Source: a virus. Taken from it: DNA of 64,000 bases. Position numbers and translations under genes: made by a program. Shown one piece after another: positions 6,618 through 26,478 of this stretch; the stretch's first letter is position 1; each line of letters starts with the position of its first letter. The notes beneath the pieces were generated by a model. That model saw nothing but the letters and a program-made list of their open reading frames with translations. It had not been told where the DNA came from and did no database searches. The stretch spans positions 74,950 through 138,949 of the IMG/VR virus record IMGVR_UViG_3300045988_118866, one strand, 5' to 3'.

Positions 6618-6686
6618 TATGAATAAGTAAATTATAGAAATTCTTAAATAATAGTGGTGGTATTATGAAAGGAGGTTGAATAGCCT

Positions 6687-8435
6687 ATGGACTATCAACT
6701 AAAAGCCCCTCGCATCCCGCAGTATTCAGCGGTCGAACAGGTGCTAACCAACAGAGGAATTAAATTACAAGATATTCCTCATTATCTTAATACCACTGAT
6801 GACGACATTATCGAACCAGCAACTATTGATAGAATAGAAAATGGTGCAAAAATGCTCGTCAAACATATTGCACAAAATGACAAAGTTCTTATATAGGTAG
6901 ATAGTGATTGTGATGGCTATACTTCGGCGGCCGCACTCATGAATTACTTATACTGTCTTTTTCCTGCGTTTGTGCAAAACAATATTTTTTATCGTGTCCA
7001 TGCAGGAAAACAACACGGAATTATACCAGATAGTATTGATAAAGATATTAAATTAGTAATTGCTCCAGATTCTTCATCAAATGATTATTTAGAACACGAA
7101 TATTTATATAAAAATGGTATTGACGTGTTGGTAATAGACCACCATGAAGCTGATAAAATATCATAGTATGCTTGTATTATTAACAATCAATTATGTGATT
7201 ATCCGACCAAATCTTTATCTGGCGTAGGAATGGTTTATAAGTTTTGCTGTTATATTGATGAACTTATGAACGTTCAATACGCGGACCGTATATTGGATTT
7301 AGTTGCTCTTGGAATGGTGGCCGACATGATGGATATGCGTGATTTTGAAACAAAACATTTAATTAATAAAGGCTTACAACAAATCACCAATCCTTACTTC
7401 AGAGGCATAATCAATAGAGATTAGTTTCATTTTAATAATGAGATTACGCCTATTGGAGTAGCTTTCTATATTGCTCCTTTAGTTAATGCAACTACTCGTG
7501 TTGGGACGCAAGAAGAAAAGCTCATGCTATTCGAGTCAATGCTTGATTTTAAGGGATACGAACTTGTCCCTTCAACAAAACGTGGATGTAAAGGTCAAGC
7601 AGAAACAAGAGTAGAACAAGCTTGTCGTAATTGTACTAATATCAAGAATAGGCAAACTAAAATCAGAGACACTAGCTTGGAAAAAATTGAATAGATAATC
7701 GCAAATCAAAATCTTTTAAGTAATAAAATCTTAGGAATTAAGTTAGATGGATTTGCTGCTGATAAAAATTTGACTGGTTTAATAGCTAATCAATTAATGA
7801 GTAAATATCAACGTCCTGTTTTAATTCTTAATAAAACAATAGATGAAGAAACTCAACAAATTTGTTGGGAAGGCTCCGGCAGAGGATACGACAAATCCGC
7901 GCTTAAAGACTTTAGAGAATTTTGTCAAAAATCAAATCTAATTATGTATGCGGAAGGACATCCTAATGCTTTTGGGTTTGGTATTATTGATGATAATTTT
8001 GATAAATTTATTGAATATGCGAATTCTGCTTTACAAGATTTTGATTTCACCCCAATTTATAGTGTTGATTTTATTTATCACACTAATGATTTAGTTGGAA
8101 AAGATATCATTGATATTGCTCAACTTAAACCGCTTTGGGGCCAAGGGGTAGAAGAAGCATCTATTGCCGTTGAAGGAATAAAAGTTGTATCAAATAACTT
8201 AACTTTAATGTCAAAAGATAAAAATCCTACCTTGAAGATAACTATGCCAGATGGCATCAGTTTAATCAAGTTTAAGTCGTCCGAGGAGGAATACGAGAAA
8301 TTGTATTCTGAATAGGGTTATGTGACAATTAATATCGTTGGTAAATGCGAACGAAATATATGGAATAATAATATTAGTCCTTAGATTATTATAGAAGATT
8401 ACGAAATTGTAGATAGGGCTGCTTATTATTTTTAA
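6687..8435 (+). CDS. DHH/DHHA1 family phosphoesterase (RecJ/NrnA-like), six in-frame TAG codons
   Basis: Four ORF-track pieces (6687, 6939, 7230, 7770) share one frame and are joined by TAGs at 6894, 7164, 7422 and 7692. Motifs VDSDCDG (DHH motif I), VIDHHE (DHH) and AEGHPNAFG (DHHA1 GGH). The frame continues past the TAG at 8313 to a TAA at 8433. Confidence 0.75.
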
Positions 8436-10169: not shown

Positions 10170-10390
10170 TGTGGATTTACTGGAAAGAGCAATGTAATTA
10201 TTGTTCTAATTATGAAAATTGTTCTTATTATAATAAAGCCCAAGAATTAATTTCTAAATTAGATAATATAGATAGACATACTACTGGTGTTTATGGAACA
10301 TTAAAATGGGCTTGTGATTATTTTATTGTAGATAAAGATAAATATTATAGATTAAATCCTGGAGAGTGTTATAATGGAATTAACTCGTAA
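10169..10390 (+). CDS. Cys-rich small hypothetical protein
   Basis: 73 aa with several Cys residues (CNYCSNYENC). Overlapping start and stop with neighbours. Confidence 0.45.
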   Translation: MWIYWKEQCNYCSNYENCSYYNKAQELISKLDNIDRHTTGVYGTLKWACDYFIVDKDKYYRLNPGECYNGINS

Positions 10391-11567
10391 ACAAGAAGAA
10401 GGATTAAAAATTGCGGTTGAGCGCTATTATGCTCGAGAACGTTGGACTTGTATAGCGGGGTATGCAGGAAGTGGAAAGAGCACTTTAATTAAATTTATTA
10501 TTTCTGCCCTTGATGTTGATCCAGAAGAAGAAGTTTGCTATGTCGCATTTACAGGTAAAGCCGCAACCGTGCTCCAACAGAAAGGATGCCCTAATGCTAC
10601 GACCGCGCACAAACTCTTATATAAAGCCAAAATGATGGCTAACGGAACTTTTAAATTCTTTCCAAAAGATAATAGTGAATTAGCACAATATAAAGTAATT
10701 GTTGTCGATGAAGTATCAATGCTTCCTAAAAAATTATGGGACTTAATGCTAACTCATGGTATTTATATTATCGCGGCAGGCGATCCCGGTCAATTACCAC
10801 CCGTAGATCCTAATGAAAATAATCATGTATTAGATAAACCACACATTTTTCTTGATGAAATTATGCGCCAAGCGCAAGACAGCGAAATTATTCGTTTTTC
10901 AATGTGGATTAGAGAAGGTAAATCTTTAATTTCTTATCGTCCTGAAGGAAAACAAGTAAGAGTATATGATAAAAGTCAAGTTATACCTGAAATGTATGAT
11001 TGGGCTGATTAGATTATTTGTGCTAAAAACGCTACAAGAACTAAGATAAATAATCTTGTTCGAGAAAGAAAAGGTTTTAATCCTGATATTCCTCAAATCG
11101 GAGATAAAATTATTGGATTACATAATAACTGGGATTTTATGTCTGAAAATCGAGTATGGGCTTTAACTAATGGCACTGTTGGAACTATTGAAGATTTTTA
11201 TACAGAGGATATTCGAGTTCCTTATTATATTTCAGAAGTTCCTATTACTTATATGTTTACTCAAATTGTTTTAAGCGATGGAGATAAATTTTGTGGGACT
11301 CCAATTGATTATAAACAACTTATCACCGGTGAAGGGACTCTTACGGGTAGCCAATGCTATCAATTAAGAAATAATAAACAATGTCTTGATCCTCCGCTTG
11401 ATTTTTCCTATGCTTATGCTATTACCTGTTGGAAAGCGCAAGGTAGTGAATACGGAAAAGTATTAGGATTTGAAGAAAATCATCCTTTTGATCGAGAAGA
11501 GCATAAAAAGTATTTATATACTATGGCTACTAGGGCTAGCGATAAATTAGTAATTATAAGGAAGTAA
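10374..11567 (+). CDS. SF1 Dda/RecD-like DNA helicase (one in-frame TAG)
   Basis: ORFs 10374..11012 and 11139..11567 are in the same frame, joined through the TAG at 11010-11012. Walker A AGYAGSGKST, Walker B VIVVDEVSML, motif III AAGDPGQLPPV, motif V/VI CWKAQGSEYG. Confidence 0.8.
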
Positions 11568-11570
11568 TAA

Positions 11571-12215
11571 ATGAAAAAAATATTATCAATAGATTTTGAT
11601 ATTATAATGTCTCCTTGTATTCAACTTTACAATAATTATTCAACTGATGATTGGGAAGCATTATGTTCTCATTTTGAAATTTTAAAATTTGCTAAACCTG
11701 ATTATATCCATTTTAAAAGGCTTTTACAACTTTTATTAAAATTAAGTAAAAGTATGAAAAAAGAAAATATTCATTTTATTGTTTCACATGAAATGATTGC
11801 TACTTATGTTGATAAGAATATAGATGATACTATATCTTTAATTAATATAGATCATCATCATGATATTGCTTACACCGATAAAGACATTGAAAATAAAATT
11901 GAAGATTTAAATTGTGGAAATTGGGTAAAATATCTATCTGAAAAAGGCAAATTAGAAAATTATGTTTGGATTAGAAATGAAGATTCAACTAATTATCCAG
12001 AAGATAGAAAATTTAATTTTTCGTCTACTCCTATTATAGAGTGTAATTTAGGAACGATTGATACTCCTGATGAACTATTTATTTGTTTATCACCTCAATG
12101 GATTCCACCTCATTTAAGATGTCTTTTTTATATTATTGTAGATATATTTAATAGTATTTATGATACTGAATTTAAAGTTCAAGGAGACGAAGAAGATAAT
12201 GGTAAATACATCTAA
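11571..12215 (+). CDS. hypothetical protein
   Basis: 214-aa intact ORF. No confident family assignment. Confidence 0.5.
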   Translation: MKKILSIDFDIIMSPCIQLYNNYSTDDWEALCSHFEILKFAKPDYIHFKRLLQLLLKLSKSMKKENIHFIVSHEMIATYVDKNIDDTISLINIDHHHDIAYTDKDIENKIEDLNCGNWVKYLSEKGKLENYVWIRNEDSTNYPEDRKFNFSSTPIIECNLGTIDTPDELFICLSPQWIPPHLRCLFYIIVDIFNSIYDTEFKVQGDEEDNGKYI

Positions 12216-12462: not shown

Positions 12463-12516
12463 ATAATATGATATTATATAAATATAAATTAAAATAAAAG
12501 GAGGGTCGGAGTTAGA

Positions 12517-15500
12517 ATGAGATCATATTTTAATTGCCATTCACATACTATGTATTCGAATCTCCGTTTACTTTGACTGTATTAATCGACCAACAGCACT
12601 AATTGATAAAGCAATAGAATTAGGATTATCAGGCATTGCCATTACAGACCATGAATGTCTTTCTGCACATATGGAAGTAAATCAATATGCAAAAAAAATA
12701 AGAGAAAAAAATCCTGATTTTACTATTGCTCTTGGTAATGAAATTTATCTCACTGATACAAGAGATAACGGACAAAAATATTACCACTTTATTCTTATTG
12801 CTAAAGATGCTATCGGACATAAAGCATTAAGAGAATTAAGTTCTATTGCTTGGATTCATAGTTATGTTGATAGACGTATGGAACGAGTTCCTACTTTAAA
12901 AAGTGAACTTGAAATGGTAATGGAGCAATATAAAGGGCATGTCATAGCTACAACTGCTTGTATTGGTGGAGAACTTGGTAGTTGTATTTTACCAATGTTT
13001 CAAGCTGAATTAAATAAAGATATTGAAACTCAAACTAAATATTATAATCAAATAATTGATTATATCAATTTTTGTATTAAAGTATTTGGAAAAGATGATT
13101 TTTATCTTGAATGTGCGCCTTCTACAGATGCCGAACAAATAGTGGTAAATCATAAGATTTATCAAATTGCTAAAGCATTTGATTTAAAAATGGTAGTTGG
13201 AACAGACGCGCATTATTTGACTAAAGAAGATAGGCCCATTCATAAAGCATATCTTACTTCTAAACCAGGAGAAAGAGAAGTTGATGATTTCTATAAATTT
13301 ACTTACTTAATGACAAGTGATGAAATTTTTGAATTAATGGAACCTTATGCTAATGATTGGGATAAAGATAATAAAACAGGAAAAGAATTGATAAATTGGA
13401 TTCTTGATAACACTCAAGAGATCCAAAATAAAATTTCTTTTTATTCATTAGAAAGAAAACAAATTATTCCAAAAGTTGAAGTAAAGGATTATAAGAAAGG
13501 ATTCATTCCTTCAAACTGGTTCGATAAATATCCAATTATCTGTTCTTTAATTAATAGCGACAATATTCAAGAACGATATTGGGTAAATGAATGTATTAAA
13601 GCTTTACAAGAAAAGCAACTTTATGATAATAAAAATTATTTAGAGCGACTTGAAATTGAAGCTGATATTATAAAAGACATTGGCGAAAAATTAGATGATT
13701 GTCTTTTTGCTTATTTTAATACTTTCCAACATTATATTAATTTATTTTGGGAATGTGGAAGTATTGTAGGTCCTGGACGTGGTTCAGCGACTGGCTTTTT
13801 ATCTAATTATCTTTTAGGCATTACTCAATTAGACCCAATTCGTTGGGGACTTCCTTATTGGAGATTTTTAAATAAGGAGCGTGCAGAATTGCCTGATATT
13901 GATATTGACCTTGCTCCAAGTAAACGTCCAGCAATTTTCAAAGCAATTAGAAAAGAACGCGGAGAATTGGGATTGGTTCAAGTTGCTACTTTTGGAACGG
14001 AAGGCACTAAACAAAGTATTTTAACCGCTTGTCGCGGATATAGAAGCGAAGAATTTCCAGAAGGAATTGATGTTGATAACGCTCAATATATGTCTTCATT
14101 AATTCCCCAAGAACGTGGATTTTTATGGCCTATTCATGATGTTATTTATGGTAATGAAGAAAAAGACCGTAAACCCGTTCAAGCATTTATTCGAGAAGTA
14201 AACCAATATCCTGGTCTTTTGGATATTATTATATATATTGAAGGAATGGTTAATAAACGTTCTTCTCATGCTTCTGGCGTTATTTTGTATGGCGATGATC
14301 CATTTGATACCGCATCATTTATGAGAACTCCTAGTGGAGATATGATTACTTGTTGGGATCTTCATAAAGCAGAAGCCGCGGGAGATACAAAATATGACTT
14401 CCTTGTAACTGAAGCTTCTGACAAAATTATTACTTGTTATCAATTACTTCTAAAAGATAAGCAAATTCCAGAATTATCTTTACGAGAATTTTATAATAAA
14501 TATATTCATCCAGAAGTGATAGATACAACTGACCAAGCAATTTGGGACCATCTTGCGGCCGGTGACGTATTAGATGTATTCCAATTTTCTACAGGAGTTG
14601 GTTTGGCAATTGCGAAACGTCTTAAGCCCCAAGACCCTATGGAAATGACGGCGGCCAATGCTATGATGCGTCTTATGTCTGAAAAAGGTAAAGAATCACA
14701 GCAAGATAGATATTATCGCATTCAACATTCAGGTATTAAAGTATTTGATGATGAAATGAAGGCTCAACATCTTCCACAAGAATTAATTGATAAGATGCAT
14801 AAGCATTGTGATAAATATTATGGATGTTGTCCTATTCAAGAGCAAATGATGGAAATTCTTATGGATGTAGCTCATTTTACTCTTGGTGAAGCTAATACTG
14901 CGCGTAAGATTGTTGCTAAAAAACAAATGGCTAAAATTCCACAATTGAGAGAGCAGGTACTTAGTAAATTTGATAATGAAAAATCTGCTGAATACTTTTG
15001 GGAAATCGCAGTTGCTCCTCAATTAGGATACGCATTTAGCCTTAATCACTCTCTTCCTTATTCATTTGTAGCAATTCAAATGATTTACTTAGTAATTCAT
15101 TTTAATCCTATTTATTGGGATACTGCTTGCTTAATTGTTAATAGTGGTTCCCTTGAAGATAATAGTGAAGAAGAGATTGTAGATATTTATGCTCCTGAAG
15201 GTGATGATTTAGCTAATGGAGTAACATTTGAAGATCTTCCTGACAAAAGTGGTAAAATCCGCAAAACCGCGGCTACTGATTATGGGAAAATTGCAAAAGC
15301 CATTAGTGACATTCAAAAAGCAGGAATTGAAGTAGGTCTTCCTGATATTAACAAATCTAAATTTGGATTTGCTCCTGATATTGAAAATAATAAAATTCTT
15401 TTCGGATTAAAAGGTATGCTGAATGTTGGTGATGAATTAGTTAATACAATCATTGCTAATCGTCCTTACTCAAATCCTAAAGAATTTTTATATCGTATTA

Positions 15501-16507
15501 AGCCAGGTAAACAAGCTATGATTTCTCTTATTAAAGGCGGAGCTTTTGATAATATGATGGATAGAAAAGAATTAATGATTTGGTATATTTGGGAAACTTG
15601 CGATAAAAAGAAAAGAATTACTCTTCAAAATATGGGCGGACTTATGAAGTATGATCTTCTTCCAGAAGAAAATGAAAATCAAATTATGGCTCGCCGCATT
15701 TATGAATTTAATAGATATTTAAAAGCAATTTGTAAAACTACAAAAAATAACGGTCTATATCAACTTGATGAACGAGCTATTAATTTCTTAGTAGAAATTG
15801 GAGAAGATAATAATATTCAATTTGATGGAACTAATTATTCTTTAAGTGAAAATATTTGGAATGGTATATACCAAAAGTGGATGGATATATTTCGCACTTG
15901 GATTGCTAATAACAAAGATGAAATTTTGAATAATCTAAATATAAAAATATTTAAAGATGATTGGGATAAATACGCTAATAAAAATAATTTATCCGCTTGG
16001 GAAATGGAAGTTCTTTGTTATTATTATCATACTCATGAATTGAACAATATTAACAATGATAAATATGGATTTGTAGATTTTTTTAAGCTTCCAGAAGATC
16101 CAATAATTGACAGAAGTTTTACCAAAGGAAATCATACTATTCATATTTATAAGTTATTTAAAATTTGCGGAACTTGTATTGCTAAAAATAAAACTAAAAG
16201 CACTGTAACCATTCTTACTACTACTGGTCCTGTAGAAGTAAAGTTTAGAAAAGAATATTTTAGTTTATTTGATAAACAAATTTCAGAGCGCGGAGCGGAC
16301 GGAACTAAACATATTGTTGAAAAATCTTGGTTTAATCGCGGAAATATGATTGTAGTCTCTGGAATTCGTAATGGAGATAATTTCATGTCAAAAAAATATG
16401 CTTCTTCTGGAGGACATCAATTATATAAAATTGATGAAATTTTATCCAATGGCGATTTAGTTTTAAAAGATGCTCGTTATCAAGGAGGAATTGAAGAAGA
16501 TGTATAA
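12517..16507 (+). CDS. dnaE: DnaE-type DNA polymerase III alpha subunit (PHP domain + pol core); N-terminus requires a +1 frame change at 12571-12577
   Basis: ATG at 12517 follows RBS aaaggaggg and encodes the PHP start MRSYFNCHSHTMYSNLRLL, then hits TGA. The +1 frame continues as DCINRPTALIDKAIELGLSGIAITDHECLSAHMEV..., matching the PHP consensus (HxH...YS.LDG...ITDH). The core carries LPDIDIDLAP (palm aspartates). No in-frame TAG anywhere in about 1330 codons. Confidence 0.8.
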
Positions 16508-17066: not shown

Positions 17067-17152
17067 GATAAATAATTATTTACTAACAAAATCTAAATAT
17101 AGTAGAATATTCTAAAAGAACTACTATATTTAGTTTGGAGGCAAAAAAATTG

Positions 17153-19405
17153 TATATTATTAAACGTGATGGAAGTATAACTCAATTTAATAAAAAGAAA
17201 ATTATTAACGCAATAAATAAAGCATTTATTGAAGTTGATGGTAAACTATATGAAGATGATACTGCGAAAGATATCGCGGAAGACATTGAAAGACAAATAA
17301 ATCATTTCCCTGATGGAAGTGTTGGAGTAGAAGATCTTCAAGATTGGATTGAAGATTATTTAATGCGTTCTGAGCGACGTGATGTTGCTCGTGCTTATAT
17401 CAGATATAGATATAAAAAAGAAGTTGCTCGTAATAAAAAAGATGATTTTATTAAAGCAATTCGTGAAAAGCTCGATGGTAATAATGTAAAAAATCAAAAT
17501 GCTAATGTTGATGAACATTCATTCGGCGGCCGCATAGGTGAAGCAAGTAGTGTTGTCACCAAACAACTTGCACTTGATTACTTACTTTCCCCTATGGCTC
17601 GTAAGAATCATGTTGATAATATGATATATACTCACGATCTTGATTCTTATTATGTCGGCTCTCATAACTGTTTAAGTATTCCTTTTGATAATTTGCTTGC
17701 TAATGGATTTAATACTCGTCAAGCAGATGTTCGTCCTGCGGGTTCAATTAATACAGCATTTCAATTAATTGCTGTTATTTTTCAAATCCAAAGTCTTTGT
17801 TAGTTTGGTGGAGTTAGTGCTACTCACTTAGATTGGACTATGGTTCCTTATGTAAGAAAATCTTTCTTTAAACATTTCAATGATGGCATTGAATTTTTAT
17901 ATGAAGGATTAGATATGAGTAAATATGATGGTTGTTATAGTAAAGAAACTCCTATTGATGATGATTTTTATAAATCATTTCCAAAAGCATATAAATATGC
18001 TATGAAAATGACCACTCGTGAAACTCATCAAGCTGCAGAAGGCCTTTATCATAATCTTAATACTCTACAATCTCGTAGCGGCAACCAATTACCATTTACA
18101 AGCATTAACTATGGCACTTGCACCAAACTTGAAGGTAGAATGGTAACTAAAGCATTATTAGATGTTTCTATCGAAGGTCTCGGTAAACTACATAAAACTT
18201 CAATTTTTCCTTGTGGAATTTTCCAATGTATGAAAGGTGTTAACCGCAAATCAGGTGATCCTAACTATGATTTATATAGATTAGCATTAGAAAGCACCGC
18301 GAGACGCCTTTATCCTAATTACGCAAATGTTGATTGGTCTGGTAATGCGGGATATGATATTAATGATCCTCGCACTTATTTTTCTACAATGGGATGCAGA
18401 ACCGCAAACGGCTGGGATATCAATGGATTCGGTCAGCTTAAAGATGGACGTGGAAATATTTGTCCAGTTACTATTATTCTTCCAACTCTTGCGATGATGG
18501 CCGTTACTCTAAATGAAAATGATAATTGGGATGACTATAAGTCATTATCCCAAGAAGAACGAACTAAAATTGGTGTAGAACGATTTATGTCTTTACTCGA
18601 TAGAAAAATCAATGAAGCACGTATTCAATTAATGGAACGTTTTGAATGGATTTGCTCTCAAGATCCTGGATCCGCGAGGTTTATGTATGAAAATAATGTT
18701 ATGGCAGGTTATGTTCCAGAAGAAGGAATTCGTTCCGCTCTTAAACACGGAACTCTTGCTATTGGTCAGTTAGGTTTGGCTGAAACTCTTCAAATTCTTA
18801 TTGGTAAAGACCACACCACTTCAGAAGGAATGGAATTAGCTAAACGAATTGAACAATTATTTAAAGAAAGATGCGCTGAATACAAAGAAAAATATAAATT
18901 AAATTTTGGAGTTTATTATACGCCCGCAGAAAATCTTTGTTATACAGCTATGACGAAATTTAAAGAAAGATACGGCGAAATTCCTAATGTTAGTGATAAA
19001 GAGTTTTTTACCAATAGTATTCACGTTCCCGTATGGAAAGAAATGAGTCCATTTGAAAAAATTGATATCGAATCTGAGTTAACTGGTTATTCATCCGCAG
19101 GATGTATCACTTACGTCGAACTTGATTCTACTGTAAAACATAATATTGATGCTCTTGAAACTATCGTCAATTATGCGATGGATCACGATATTCCTTATTT
19201 CGCAGTAAATGTTCCTAATGATACTTGCCTTGAATGTGGTTATTGTGATGAATTTAATGATTCCTGTCCTGTATGTGGAAGTCATAATATTCAGCAATTA
19301 CGTCGCGTGACTGGTTATCTTACTGGTAATTATAAAACTGCTTTTAACTGGGGTAAACAAAAAGAAGTTGAAGCAAGAGTAAAACATACGGGAGTATTAG
19401 AATGA
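17153..19405 (+). CDS. nrdD: anaerobic ribonucleoside-triphosphate reductase NrdD (one in-frame TAG)
   Basis: ATP-cone N-terminus (L)YIIKRDGSITQFNKKKIINAI. The ORF-track pieces 17135 and 17840 share a frame and are joined by the TAG at 17801-17803. C-terminal Cys cluster CLECGYC...CPVCG and glycyl-radical motif RRVTGYL. Likely TTG start at 17153, 11 nt after GGAGG. Confidence 0.9.
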
Positions 19406-25761: not shown

Positions 25762-26478
25762 ATGAAGGTGATTAAAATTTTTATCGTAGGTGTTTGCGAC
25801 AATAGCGATTAGCAAAATGACTCATTGGAAGAAATAATAAATCAGTATTTTAAAGAATTTAATTTGCCGGGATATGTATATAAATTTACTGATCCTAGAA
25901 AATTAATTGATTCTAATATTGATTATGATGCAATCTTTTTAGGGATTACATTCAAAAAAATGGATGGTATTGAAATAGCTCATCTCTTAAGAACAAATGG
26001 GTATATTGGAAAAATAATTTTTGTTTCCTCTCAAATAAATTATGGAGTAGCTTCTTATGAAGTAAAGGCATTTAACTTCGTCAAAAAACCTGCTAATAAA
26101 GAAAAAATTTTTTCTATTTTACATGAAGTTAGAGAAGAAAAAAGACGTGAATATAAATATTTAGACACTCCTAATGGAGAAGTAAAAATTGATTTGGGTA
26201 AAGTATTATATGCTGATATCCAAAAACGAAATTTGTGTTGCCATTTAGAAAATGAGGTTCTAAATAGTAAAACTTTAAAAACTTCTTTTGAAAATTATAT
26301 AGGAACTTTAGTTTATCATCCAGATTTTGTCTTTATCCCACCAAGTTTAATTATTAATTTAAATCAAATTAAAATAATGAATAAAGACAATTTAACTTTC
26401 AAAAATGGTGAAGTTTTATGCTTTCCTAAAAAAGGCTATGAGGAAATTAATCGACGATGGAAAAATCCATTTAGATAA
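25762..26478 (+). CDS. LytTR-family transcriptional regulator with degenerate (pseudo-)receiver domain
   Basis: ATG at 25762 is in frame with ORF 25825..26478 through the TAG at 25810. N-terminus MKVIKIFIVGVCDNSD... is receiver-like, but the phospho-acceptor position reads FLGI instead of FLDI. The C-terminal LytTR DNA-binding domain reads VKIDLGKVLYADIQKRNLCCHLENE...FIPPSLIINLNQI. Confidence 0.7.

Follow-up and report, generated by a model that had tools for sequence, protein, structure and literature searches.

A polymerase gene split between two reading frames

The window analysed here, a stretch of 64,000 nucleotides (nt) from an IMG/VR virus record (IMGVR_UViG_3300045988_118866, positions 74,950 to 138,949), carries a DNA polymerase gene whose beginning is divided between two reading frames at the heptamer CTT_TGA_C, a candidate site of +1 ribosomal frameshifting. 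Frame 0 begins at the ATG at 12517–12519 and gives, in open reading frame 1 (ORF1), the residues MRSYFNCHSHTMYSNLRLL before it ends at TGA; the +1 frame (ORF2), taken up from the GAC at 12575, translates as DCINRPTALIDKAIELGLSGIAITDH and stays open for 1310 codons (Table 1). The two frames adjoin with neither gap nor overlap, and the merged product is 1329 amino acids (aa) long, with LLDCINRPTALIDK as the predicted peptide spanning the junction. A reading of this DNA made from the sequence alone (hereafter the sequence-only reading) had placed the start of the PHP domain in frame 0 and its continuation in the +1 frame at CTT TGA C. The arrangement of the frames agrees with this, and the Pfam PHP profile matches residues 7–199 of the merged protein, across the junction and over nearly its whole length (profile positions 2–161 of 164; 1.5e-25). 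The merged protein also matches DNA_pol3_alpha (6e-43), DNA_pol3_finger (7e-20) and HHH_6 (9e-15) and, by its sequence, the gene product is a C-family polymerase of the DnaE/YorL-like kind. The relatives in the PDB that match the PHP region are Taq DnaE (2hpi), 5lew (DNA polymerase III subunit alpha) and PolC. Since the alignment to 5lew begins at residue 3 of the merged polymerase, the first PHP strand and the HxH motif come from ORF1. The residues of in-frame homologues at the junction, LL-D, are reproduced exactly, with none gained and none lost.

Table 1. Features of the polymerase gene start (positions in the window).
Feature	Position	Strand	Remarks
ORF1	12517–12576	+	19 sense codons, then the TGA stop
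ORF2, +1 frame	12575–16507	+	1310 codons and stop (16505–16507); remainder of the PHP domain, pol III alpha core, fingers, HhH domain
Shift heptamer CTT_TGA_C	12571–12577	+	CTT 12571–12573, TGA 12574–12576, C 12577
Codon TTA, predicted in the E site at the shift	12568–12570	+	
Shine–Dalgarno (SD) sequence GGAGGG	12500–12505	+	Strong; polymerase gene
Candidate 5' arm CGGAG	12507–12511	+	Between SD and start codon; complement of 12562–12566; RNAduplex, minimum free energy folds, family covariation
Candidate 3' arm CTCCG	12562–12566	+	−9 to −5 from the shift codon; pyrimidine-rich, at the position of the prfB SD-like element
Mosaic patch, ~160 nt	12490–12650	+	Ribosome-binding site (RBS), ORF1 and start of ORF2; from sliding identity to L001

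The heptamer CTTTGAC occurs three times in the window against 6.4 copies expected, that is, not above chance, and the two remaining copies are both non-coding; its significance derives from position and conservation and not from copy number. Decoding of TGA as a sense codon was considered and rejected, because frame 0 meets a TAA two codons later (12583–12585). Transcriptional slippage was likewise rejected, a run of three T being too short.

Distribution and sequence context of the junction

In IMG/VR, 46 related loci were identified by a protein-guided search, and their 5' ends were read. A CTT_TGA_C or CTT_TGA_T junction is present in several assemblies at 95–99% identity and in one lineage at 72%; many other relatives, some of them ~99% identical across the gene, are in-frame (CTA TTA GAT or CTT GAC). 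Pattern scans extended the search, true hits being N-termini of the polymerase in which CTT_TGA_Y stands between YSN[LIV]RLL and D[CS]IN. True junctions made up 26 of 26 stretches in IMG/VR, 4 of 5 in GTDB genomes and 42 of 44 in metagenomes (human gut, rumen, giraffe and others); the GTDB metagenome-assembled genomes (MAGs) are labelled Lachnospiraceae, Erysipelotrichaceae, Bacteroidaceae and Clostridium, labels that suffer from the unreliable binning of phage contigs. Pooled, the scans give 52 unique nucleotide contexts in which the junction falls at the identical codon, with CTTTGAC in 46 and CTTTGAT in six. ORF1 is 18–24 codons long in the true hits when the start codon is picked by its SD, and the 27 unique frameshift proteins diverge by up to 66% over 430 residues and are interspersed among in-frame relatives. 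The sequence-only reading had set a prfB-type +1 shift against a 1-nt indel and had proposed a comparison with homologues; the number of contexts and the divergence of the proteins speak for the shift, which other phage polymerases share.

As an unbiased census, we used an alignment-guided search with motifs distant from the site, which left 79 classifiable homologues. Seven have the +1 junction, four have other interruptions 4–5 codons upstream and 68 are in-frame; that is, interruptions are found in 11 of the 79 within the 8 codons (~24 nt) preceding the Asp codon. Past the Asp codon, 77 of the 79 are open for at least 1150 codons or reach the end of the locus (median 1293), and two possible breaks are seen in ~3900 nt (~1290 codons). 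The density of interruptions at the junction is thus ~900-fold above that in the rest of the gene, which excludes random indels or assembly errors as their source. Moreover, the amino acids of ORF1 are conserved among the frameshift alleles while the codons vary synonymously (TAT/TAC, TCA/TCG/TCT/AGC, AAT/AAC), and it follows that translation proceeds in frame 0 as far as the shift codon, with purifying selection acting on it. From these comparisons, we favour programmed +1 frameshifting by the ribosome at a "shifty stop" that follows the first 19 codons of the polymerase gene, and assign it a probability of about 0.85.

Searches outside these collections were less productive. Among 50,697 phage records no match to the gene was found by megablast, and blastn with the consensus cassette against cultured phages gave chance-level hits only (E ~6), with no cultured example found. 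A search for phage prfB genes via AGGGGGNNNCTTTGACT matched at least 120 stretches; none of the 80 listed had a frameshift polymerase on the same contig, an uninformative outcome.

The frameshift alleles share more than the heptamer. When the 52 frameshift contexts were compared with 74 unique in-frame contexts by Fisher tests, a consensus, YUY_CGY_UUA_CUU_UGA_C, emerged for the former. The Asp codon is GAC, giving UGA-C, in 46/52 frameshift versus 22/74 in-frame contexts (p = 2e-11), and the E-site codon is TTA in 48/52 versus 25/71 (p = 5e-11). The Arg codon before it is CGN in all 52 frameshift contexts versus 50/74 (p = 8e-7) and CGC in 32/52 versus 5/50 (p = 4e-8), and the codon preceding the Arg ends in a pyrimidine in 51/52 versus 49/74 (p = 3.5e-6). 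An AGR codon for this Arg is absent from the 52 frameshift contexts, even in the scans that permitted it, and is present in 24 of the 74 in-frame contexts. At the control codons −5, +2 and +3 the two classes are alike. The start site also differs, the duplex between SD and anti-SD having a mean energy of −14.2 kcal/mol in frameshift and −9.8 kcal/mol in in-frame alleles (Mann–Whitney p = 7e-10). The C preference after the stop indicates that competition with termination matters, and such competition clearly appears, on this codon usage, to be under selection at the shift site. In prfB, too, UGA is followed by a conserved C, a context in which termination is weak. As for the E site, a weakly pairing codon has been reported to raise RF2 shifting (PMC5009743). 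The sequence-only reading had remarked on the absence of an SD-like stimulator 3 nt upstream, and indeed the window has no SD-like GGAGG 3 nt before CTT, the sequence there being ATCTCCG. The family consensus at that position, YTY_CGY, is pyrimidine-rich and anti-SD-like; prfB carries AGGGGG at the position that the −9 to −4 element occupies here (PMC12421855).

In the family tree the frameshift alleles are scattered, some with in-frame neighbours just 0.2–7% away, and one clade consists exclusively of frameshift alleles with a mutual divergence of 30–37%. Within the species-level cluster of the window, frameshift and in-frame genomes are 94–100% identical on both flanks, and the patch of Table 1 has an identity of 0.71 to the in-frame L001. 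The in-frame allele of L001 has a weak SD, AAAGGAA; the frameshift allele has GGAGGG and the CGGAG arm. A divergent patch between near-identical flanks implies that the cassette is exchanged as a unit by recombination. Nine in-frame alleles hold the complete 5' motif YTYCGNTT[AG]CTT with the extra T absent, and gain or loss of a single T is likely, from these sequences, to be a second route between the alleles.

Other interruptions lie close by. Three further lineages are broken at the Y-S/N junction, 5 codons before the +1 site (L158:9974-10005 and L160, with the same sequence as L122; L159:5586-5617; L161:681-712, the same as L142). Each block is a Ser codon, a stop, two nucleotides and TCT, namely TCC TGA TG TCT, TCC TAA TG TCT and TCT TAG GG TCT. 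The matching take-off and landing Ser codons would fit an 8-nt hop; a +2 shift or, in two of the three, re-initiation at TGATG or TAATG are possible alternatives. At the same Y-S/N junction (~30 nt upstream of position 1501 of the respective locus), L157 reads TAT TCTCT AAT, which adds two bases but no stop, and L153 reads TAT TCT TAA ACT AAT, with an in-frame TAA and an extra codon. In L018, L024/L028, L030, L033, L036, L039, L040 and L046 the polymerase match extends over 5.0–5.8 kb, compared with 3.9 kb, or the frame ends early, which suggests that elements (introns, inteins or homing endonucleases) have been inserted into the gene.

A putative translational gate and its alternatives

On the reading we favour, initiation at the ATG behind the strong SD would lead to translation of the first PHP strand and the HxH motif, bringing the ribosome to a point where UGA-C fills the A site, Leu-tRNA sits on CUU in the P site and UUA occupies the E site. 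From there RF2 would terminate, with release of the 19-residue peptide, or else the P-site Leu-tRNA would re-pair from CUU to UUU, GAC (Asp) would be read next and the 1329-aa polymerase would be made. Spontaneous +1 re-pairing while UGA-C awaits RF2, by analogy with prfB, is the most likely mechanism. The polymerase yield would then be the product of the initiation rate and the ratio of shift to termination, and should rise when termination at UGA is slow. In E. coli reporters the prfB motif without the SD supports ~10–50% shifting, varying with ribosome load (PMC6815119), and the bare RF2 10-mer gives 27% in a purified cell-free system (bioRxiv 2025.10.02.679949). Given these published rates, useful yields of polymerase are plausible without an SD-like stimulator.

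The 5' element may nevertheless have a partner. The 4-mer at −9 to −6 has an exact complement that overlaps the start codon or lies no more than 12 nt 5' of it in 20 of the 25 frameshift alleles of a first set and in 23 of 27 further unique contexts from metagenomes, which formed part of the same analysis; the complement is present in 19 of 74 in-frame genes, and shuffled partners predict ~9.6 in the frameshift and 10.2 in the in-frame set. The two sequences change together. Alleles with the element ATCC have GGAT as the partner (20/24) and never GAAT (0/24), those with ATTC have GAAT (12/12) and never GGAT (0/12), CTTC goes with GAAG (4/4) and CTCC with GGAG (7/10, including the window, where CGGAG at 12507–12511 faces CTCCG at 12562–12566), and the single allele with TTACGC (L075) has GCGTAA (1/1). 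Because the same arm class recurs in lineages with unrelated leader peptides, co-inheritance of the whole cassette is an incomplete explanation. The expected number of pairs from the RBS to the element is 4.67 in frameshift and 2.08 in in-frame alleles (p = 2e-5). A named two-helix structure has 73% of its cells paired and 17 double-change cells, neither value being matched in 500 shuffles (slid controls, 29–52% paired), with p-values that are overstated, since the structure was derived from the tested sequences and these are phylogenetically related. Pairing of an AUCC element with the GGAU beside the anti-SD of 16S rRNA was also considered and was rejected, both because the element covaries with the upstream 4-mer of its own mRNA and because TTACGC/GCGTAA in L075 has no rRNA complement.

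It is about an even chance, on covariation, that the −9 to −5 pyrimidine element pairs with the purine stretch 5' of its own start codon, replacing the prfB duplex as a 5' stimulator; the pairing is a supported hypothesis, drawn from sequence, and not a demonstrated structure. Against it stand the shortness of the helix (4–6 bp across a ~50-nt loop) and a register that differs between lineages. RNAalifold on 21 frameshift leaders returned no consensus structure and no 3' stimulator, the leader of the window folds no better than its shuffles (z = −0.94, 38/200 shuffles equally good), and the permutation of cognate against non-cognate duplex energies is only modest in frameshift alleles (69/2000). 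If formed, a duplex closing again behind the ribosome could stimulate the +1 shift, much as an upstream hairpin stimulates +1 shifting in yeast (Cho et al. 2013, PMC3639245), and a partner in the RBS could couple shifting and initiation, tying both frameshifting and access to the RBS to the occupancy of the start site.

Whether the site truly regulates, by sensing RF2 or the capacity for termination, or only sets a fixed low yield is a separate matter, and we consider sensing a little short of an even bet on the sequence data. Several observations weigh against a gate of this kind. About 85% of relatives are in-frame, including genomes ~99% identical elsewhere in the gene, so that, while the shift is conserved in homologues as the sequence-only reading had anticipated, the single-frame homologues that it had named as telling against a shift also exist, and in the majority. 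The frameshift is not essential, since in-frame alleles prevail and are found in near-identical genomes, and it is for this reason an alternative allele or cassette rather than something fixed in the gene. At a Leu-Asp junction, the insertion of a T ahead of GAY always makes TGA, and the identity of the stop is consequently no evidence for RF2-specific sensing; of the RF2 sensing that had been proposed, this part does not hold, whereas the selected C after the stop does point to competition with termination. The hop-type variants, interrupted a few codons upstream, make use of all three stops (TGA, TAA and TAG), which speaks against RF2 specificity as a general principle.

Of the alternatives, the one that survives best is a tolerated "savior" indel: a T would be inserted recurrently in CTT_GAY, the gene would survive through CUU_UGA_C slippage, with the same +1 decoding and no sensing, and later changes (a stronger SD, C after the stop, a weak E-site codon) would restore the yield of polymerase. 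Much of the above can be accommodated in this way, as CTT precedes the Asp codon in 15 of 74 in-frame contexts, the nine in-frame alleles carry the entire motif minus the extra T, frameshift alleles sit in the tree beside the close in-frame relatives, the stronger SD resembles compensation and the Asp codon forces TGA. However, the close pairs differ by the ~160-nt patch with its many synonymous changes (Ser TCA versus AGC, for example) and not by a single T, and the divergence within the all-frameshift clade implies long persistence. Moreover, three other lineages have a different, stop-containing interruption almost in the same place, which chance indels are unlikely to produce, and a covarying arm beside the start codon exceeds what plain compensation of yield would require. 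We regard the savior indel as unlikely.

Far less probable is that no frameshift takes place, ORF1 being a leader peptide or upstream open reading frame and the polymerase being initiated or re-initiated downstream, for example at the ATG at 12671, without the first PHP strand, or the gene being a decaying pseudogene. Gene callers do give a 1278-aa product, and a TGATG or TAATG overlap that could serve re-initiation is present in two of the three hop variants. In contrast, ORF1 encodes the invariant HxH..YSN.RLL of the PHP domain, is under purifying selection and is in exact register with ORF2, and the first ATG, GTG or TTG of the +1 frame lies 32 codons downstream, where inspection of the sequence shows no SD. 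A pseudogene is hard to reconcile with an ORF2 intact over ~1300 codons in every lineage, nor is the gene a spare paralogue, as it is the syntenic orthologue of the in-frame copies.

A dedicated decoding factor, either a phage Leu-tRNA with an extended anticodon reading CUUU or a phage protein that alters termination, is just as improbable: large phages with recoded TAG are rich in tRNAs, and some encode release factors (Borges et al. preprint), but the 64-kb window, about a third of the 194-kb genome, has neither a tRNA gene nor the GGQ[HN] release-factor motif, and the heptamer is known to shift unaided.

Finally, a sequencing or assembly error, with one surplus T in a T-run of a truly continuous gene, would account for a single-base interruption in TTT where close relatives read CTT GAC, but is effectively already refuted by the recurrence of the junction, between diverged flanks, across over 20 source datasets of IMG/VR, four MAGs and dozens of metagenome assemblies made independently of one another, by a three-T run too short for homopolymer error, by the concentration of interruptions at the junction and by flanking nucleotides that differ systematically between the allele classes.

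The programmed shift that we favour has its nearest counterpart in the prfB cassette, with which it shares the CUU_UGA_C heptamer and the Leu-Asp product, a site near the gene start (codon 19 in the polymerase, codon 26 in E. coli prfB), a short ORF1 peptide with the functional protein in the +1 frame, a selected C after the stop, and a conserved −9 to −4 element separated from the shift codon by a 3-nt spacer that forms the E-site codon. Unlike in prfB, the product is a DNA polymerase, and shifting hence closes no loop of autoregulation; pyrimidines dominate the element (AUCCGC or CUCCGU versus AGGGGG), which cannot pair with the anti-SD and covaries with the start region of its own mRNA; and the cassette is an optional allele in ~10% of homologues, whereas it is near-universal in prfB. 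The candidate pairing recalls upstream-duplex modulators such as the 5' attenuator hairpin of SARS-CoV and the hairpin that stimulates +1 shifting (PMC3639245), in that a duplex behind the ribosome is expected to favour +1 movement and the 3' arm here ends 5 nt from the P-site codon. It differs in that the helix is short and the candidate partner is the RBS and start region ~50 nt upstream, so that pairing would occlude initiation. Recoding inside a replisome gene is also known from the −1 frameshift of dnaX (tau/gamma of Pol III); that shift, however, runs in the −1 direction at A_AAA_AAG, yields two functional products in a fixed ratio and is not needed for the full-length product. The polymerase itself belongs to the same family as YorL of SPbeta and the DnaE-type polymerases of Bacillus, Enterococcus and Staphylococcus phages and of Phass-1, with the same domain order and 39–44% identity to YorL-type polymerases of cultured phages over the first 638 residues. 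In contrast to the gene of the window, the best 40 of 1408 cultured-phage matches are in-frame at the site, their matches beginning at residues 1–8.

Every CUU-stop +1 site in RECODE is reported to belong to prfB (PMC10885494), and in the literature searched we found no report of +1 shifting in polymerases of phages or of the DnaE type, or of CUU_UGA_C outside prfB. What would be new here is thus a known shift site in a second gene family, within a different and possibly new 5' context. The CUU_UGA_C shift has been treated as a private signature of prfB, and its use by an unrelated family, with an SD-free heptamer in a conserved context of its own, would amount to a natural experiment on the role of that context. 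The polymerase would be the first candidate replicative polymerase whose synthesis hinges on competition with translation termination. A broader proposal, distinctly more tentative than the shift itself and in our view rather doubtful, is that of a modular translational gate in the replicases of gut and rumen phages. It would combine a strong SD, a short leader, a shifty stop and an mRNA–mRNA duplex in place of the rRNA–mRNA duplex, and would make polymerase synthesis depend both on how much RF2 the cell can bring to termination and on the flow of ribosomes over the start site; it would have arisen at least twice (as the CUU_UGA_C +1 shift and as the Ser-stop-NN-UCU 8-nt hops) and have spread by recombination of the ~160-nt patch. 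If so, phages, including stop-codon-recoded ones, may time or limit replication by the translation state of the host. The coexistence of frameshift and in-frame alleles in near-identical genomes offers a clean system for testing the role of such a gate in fitness.

Annotation, TAG reassignment and genomic setting

The frameshift is unannotated in the public ENA assembly of the phage, which has a 1278-aa polymerase starting at Met-52 (the ATG at 12671; window 12671–16507 corresponds to L206:10001-13837). The ENA scaffold that the window matches is 194 kb long and derives from a human-gut metagenome sampled in Peru, in a cohort that the study of alternatively coded phages also covered. The annotated product is without the HxH motif, and homologues with the cassette are probably truncated likewise in protein databases. 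Such N-terminal mis-annotation, with loss of the PHP metal-binding motif, has consequences for what is inferred about function and structure in a large group of phages from gut, rumen and digesters.

TAG is reassigned in this phage, as the sequence-only reading had supposed. With TAG as sense, the summed stop-to-stop ORF length relative to region length (both strands) increases in the minus-strand late region from 0.56 to 1.09, the ORFs there having up to 72 in-frame TAGs, and the public ENA assembly likewise calls genes through TAG. The 1329-codon polymerase gene of the window has no in-frame TAG. Among the early genes, the DHH/RecJ-like gene has seven, the SF1 helicase one and NrdD one (window 6669–8435, 10356–11567 and 17087–19405), and recoding thus extends into the early module. 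Polymerases of other lineages with one or two in-frame TAGs are those of L085, L090, L106, L115, L117, L118, L138, L143 and L149. In loci of ~10–14 kb, the gain in ORF length with TAG or TGA as sense gave no signal even for the early region of the window's clade and is hence uninformative. The link of the frameshift to RF2 and TAG recoding, which had been put forward as a regulatory coupling, is unproven, and a tie to TAG recoding is not obligatory, because in-frame alleles are found in near-identical relatives of the same cluster (the TAG status of which was unchecked).

The polymerase gene lies in a module for replication and nucleotide metabolism, with an AAA_24 ATPase, a DnaB-like helicase, a DHH/RecJ-like protein, an SF1 helicase, guanylate kinase, NrdD, NrdG and dUTPase; no second DNA polymerase was seen in the window. 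Directly upstream of the polymerase, gene content varies even among near-identical genomes: a 214-aa ORF at 11571–12215 is absent from L001, L019 and L020, and in L013 and L020 an insertion of ~600 nt separates the preceding gene from the RBS of the polymerase (just upstream of window position 12502). At the edge of the minus-strand late region, 25825–26478 (plus strand) encodes a protein with a response-regulator receiver domain and a weak, sub-threshold LytTR match.

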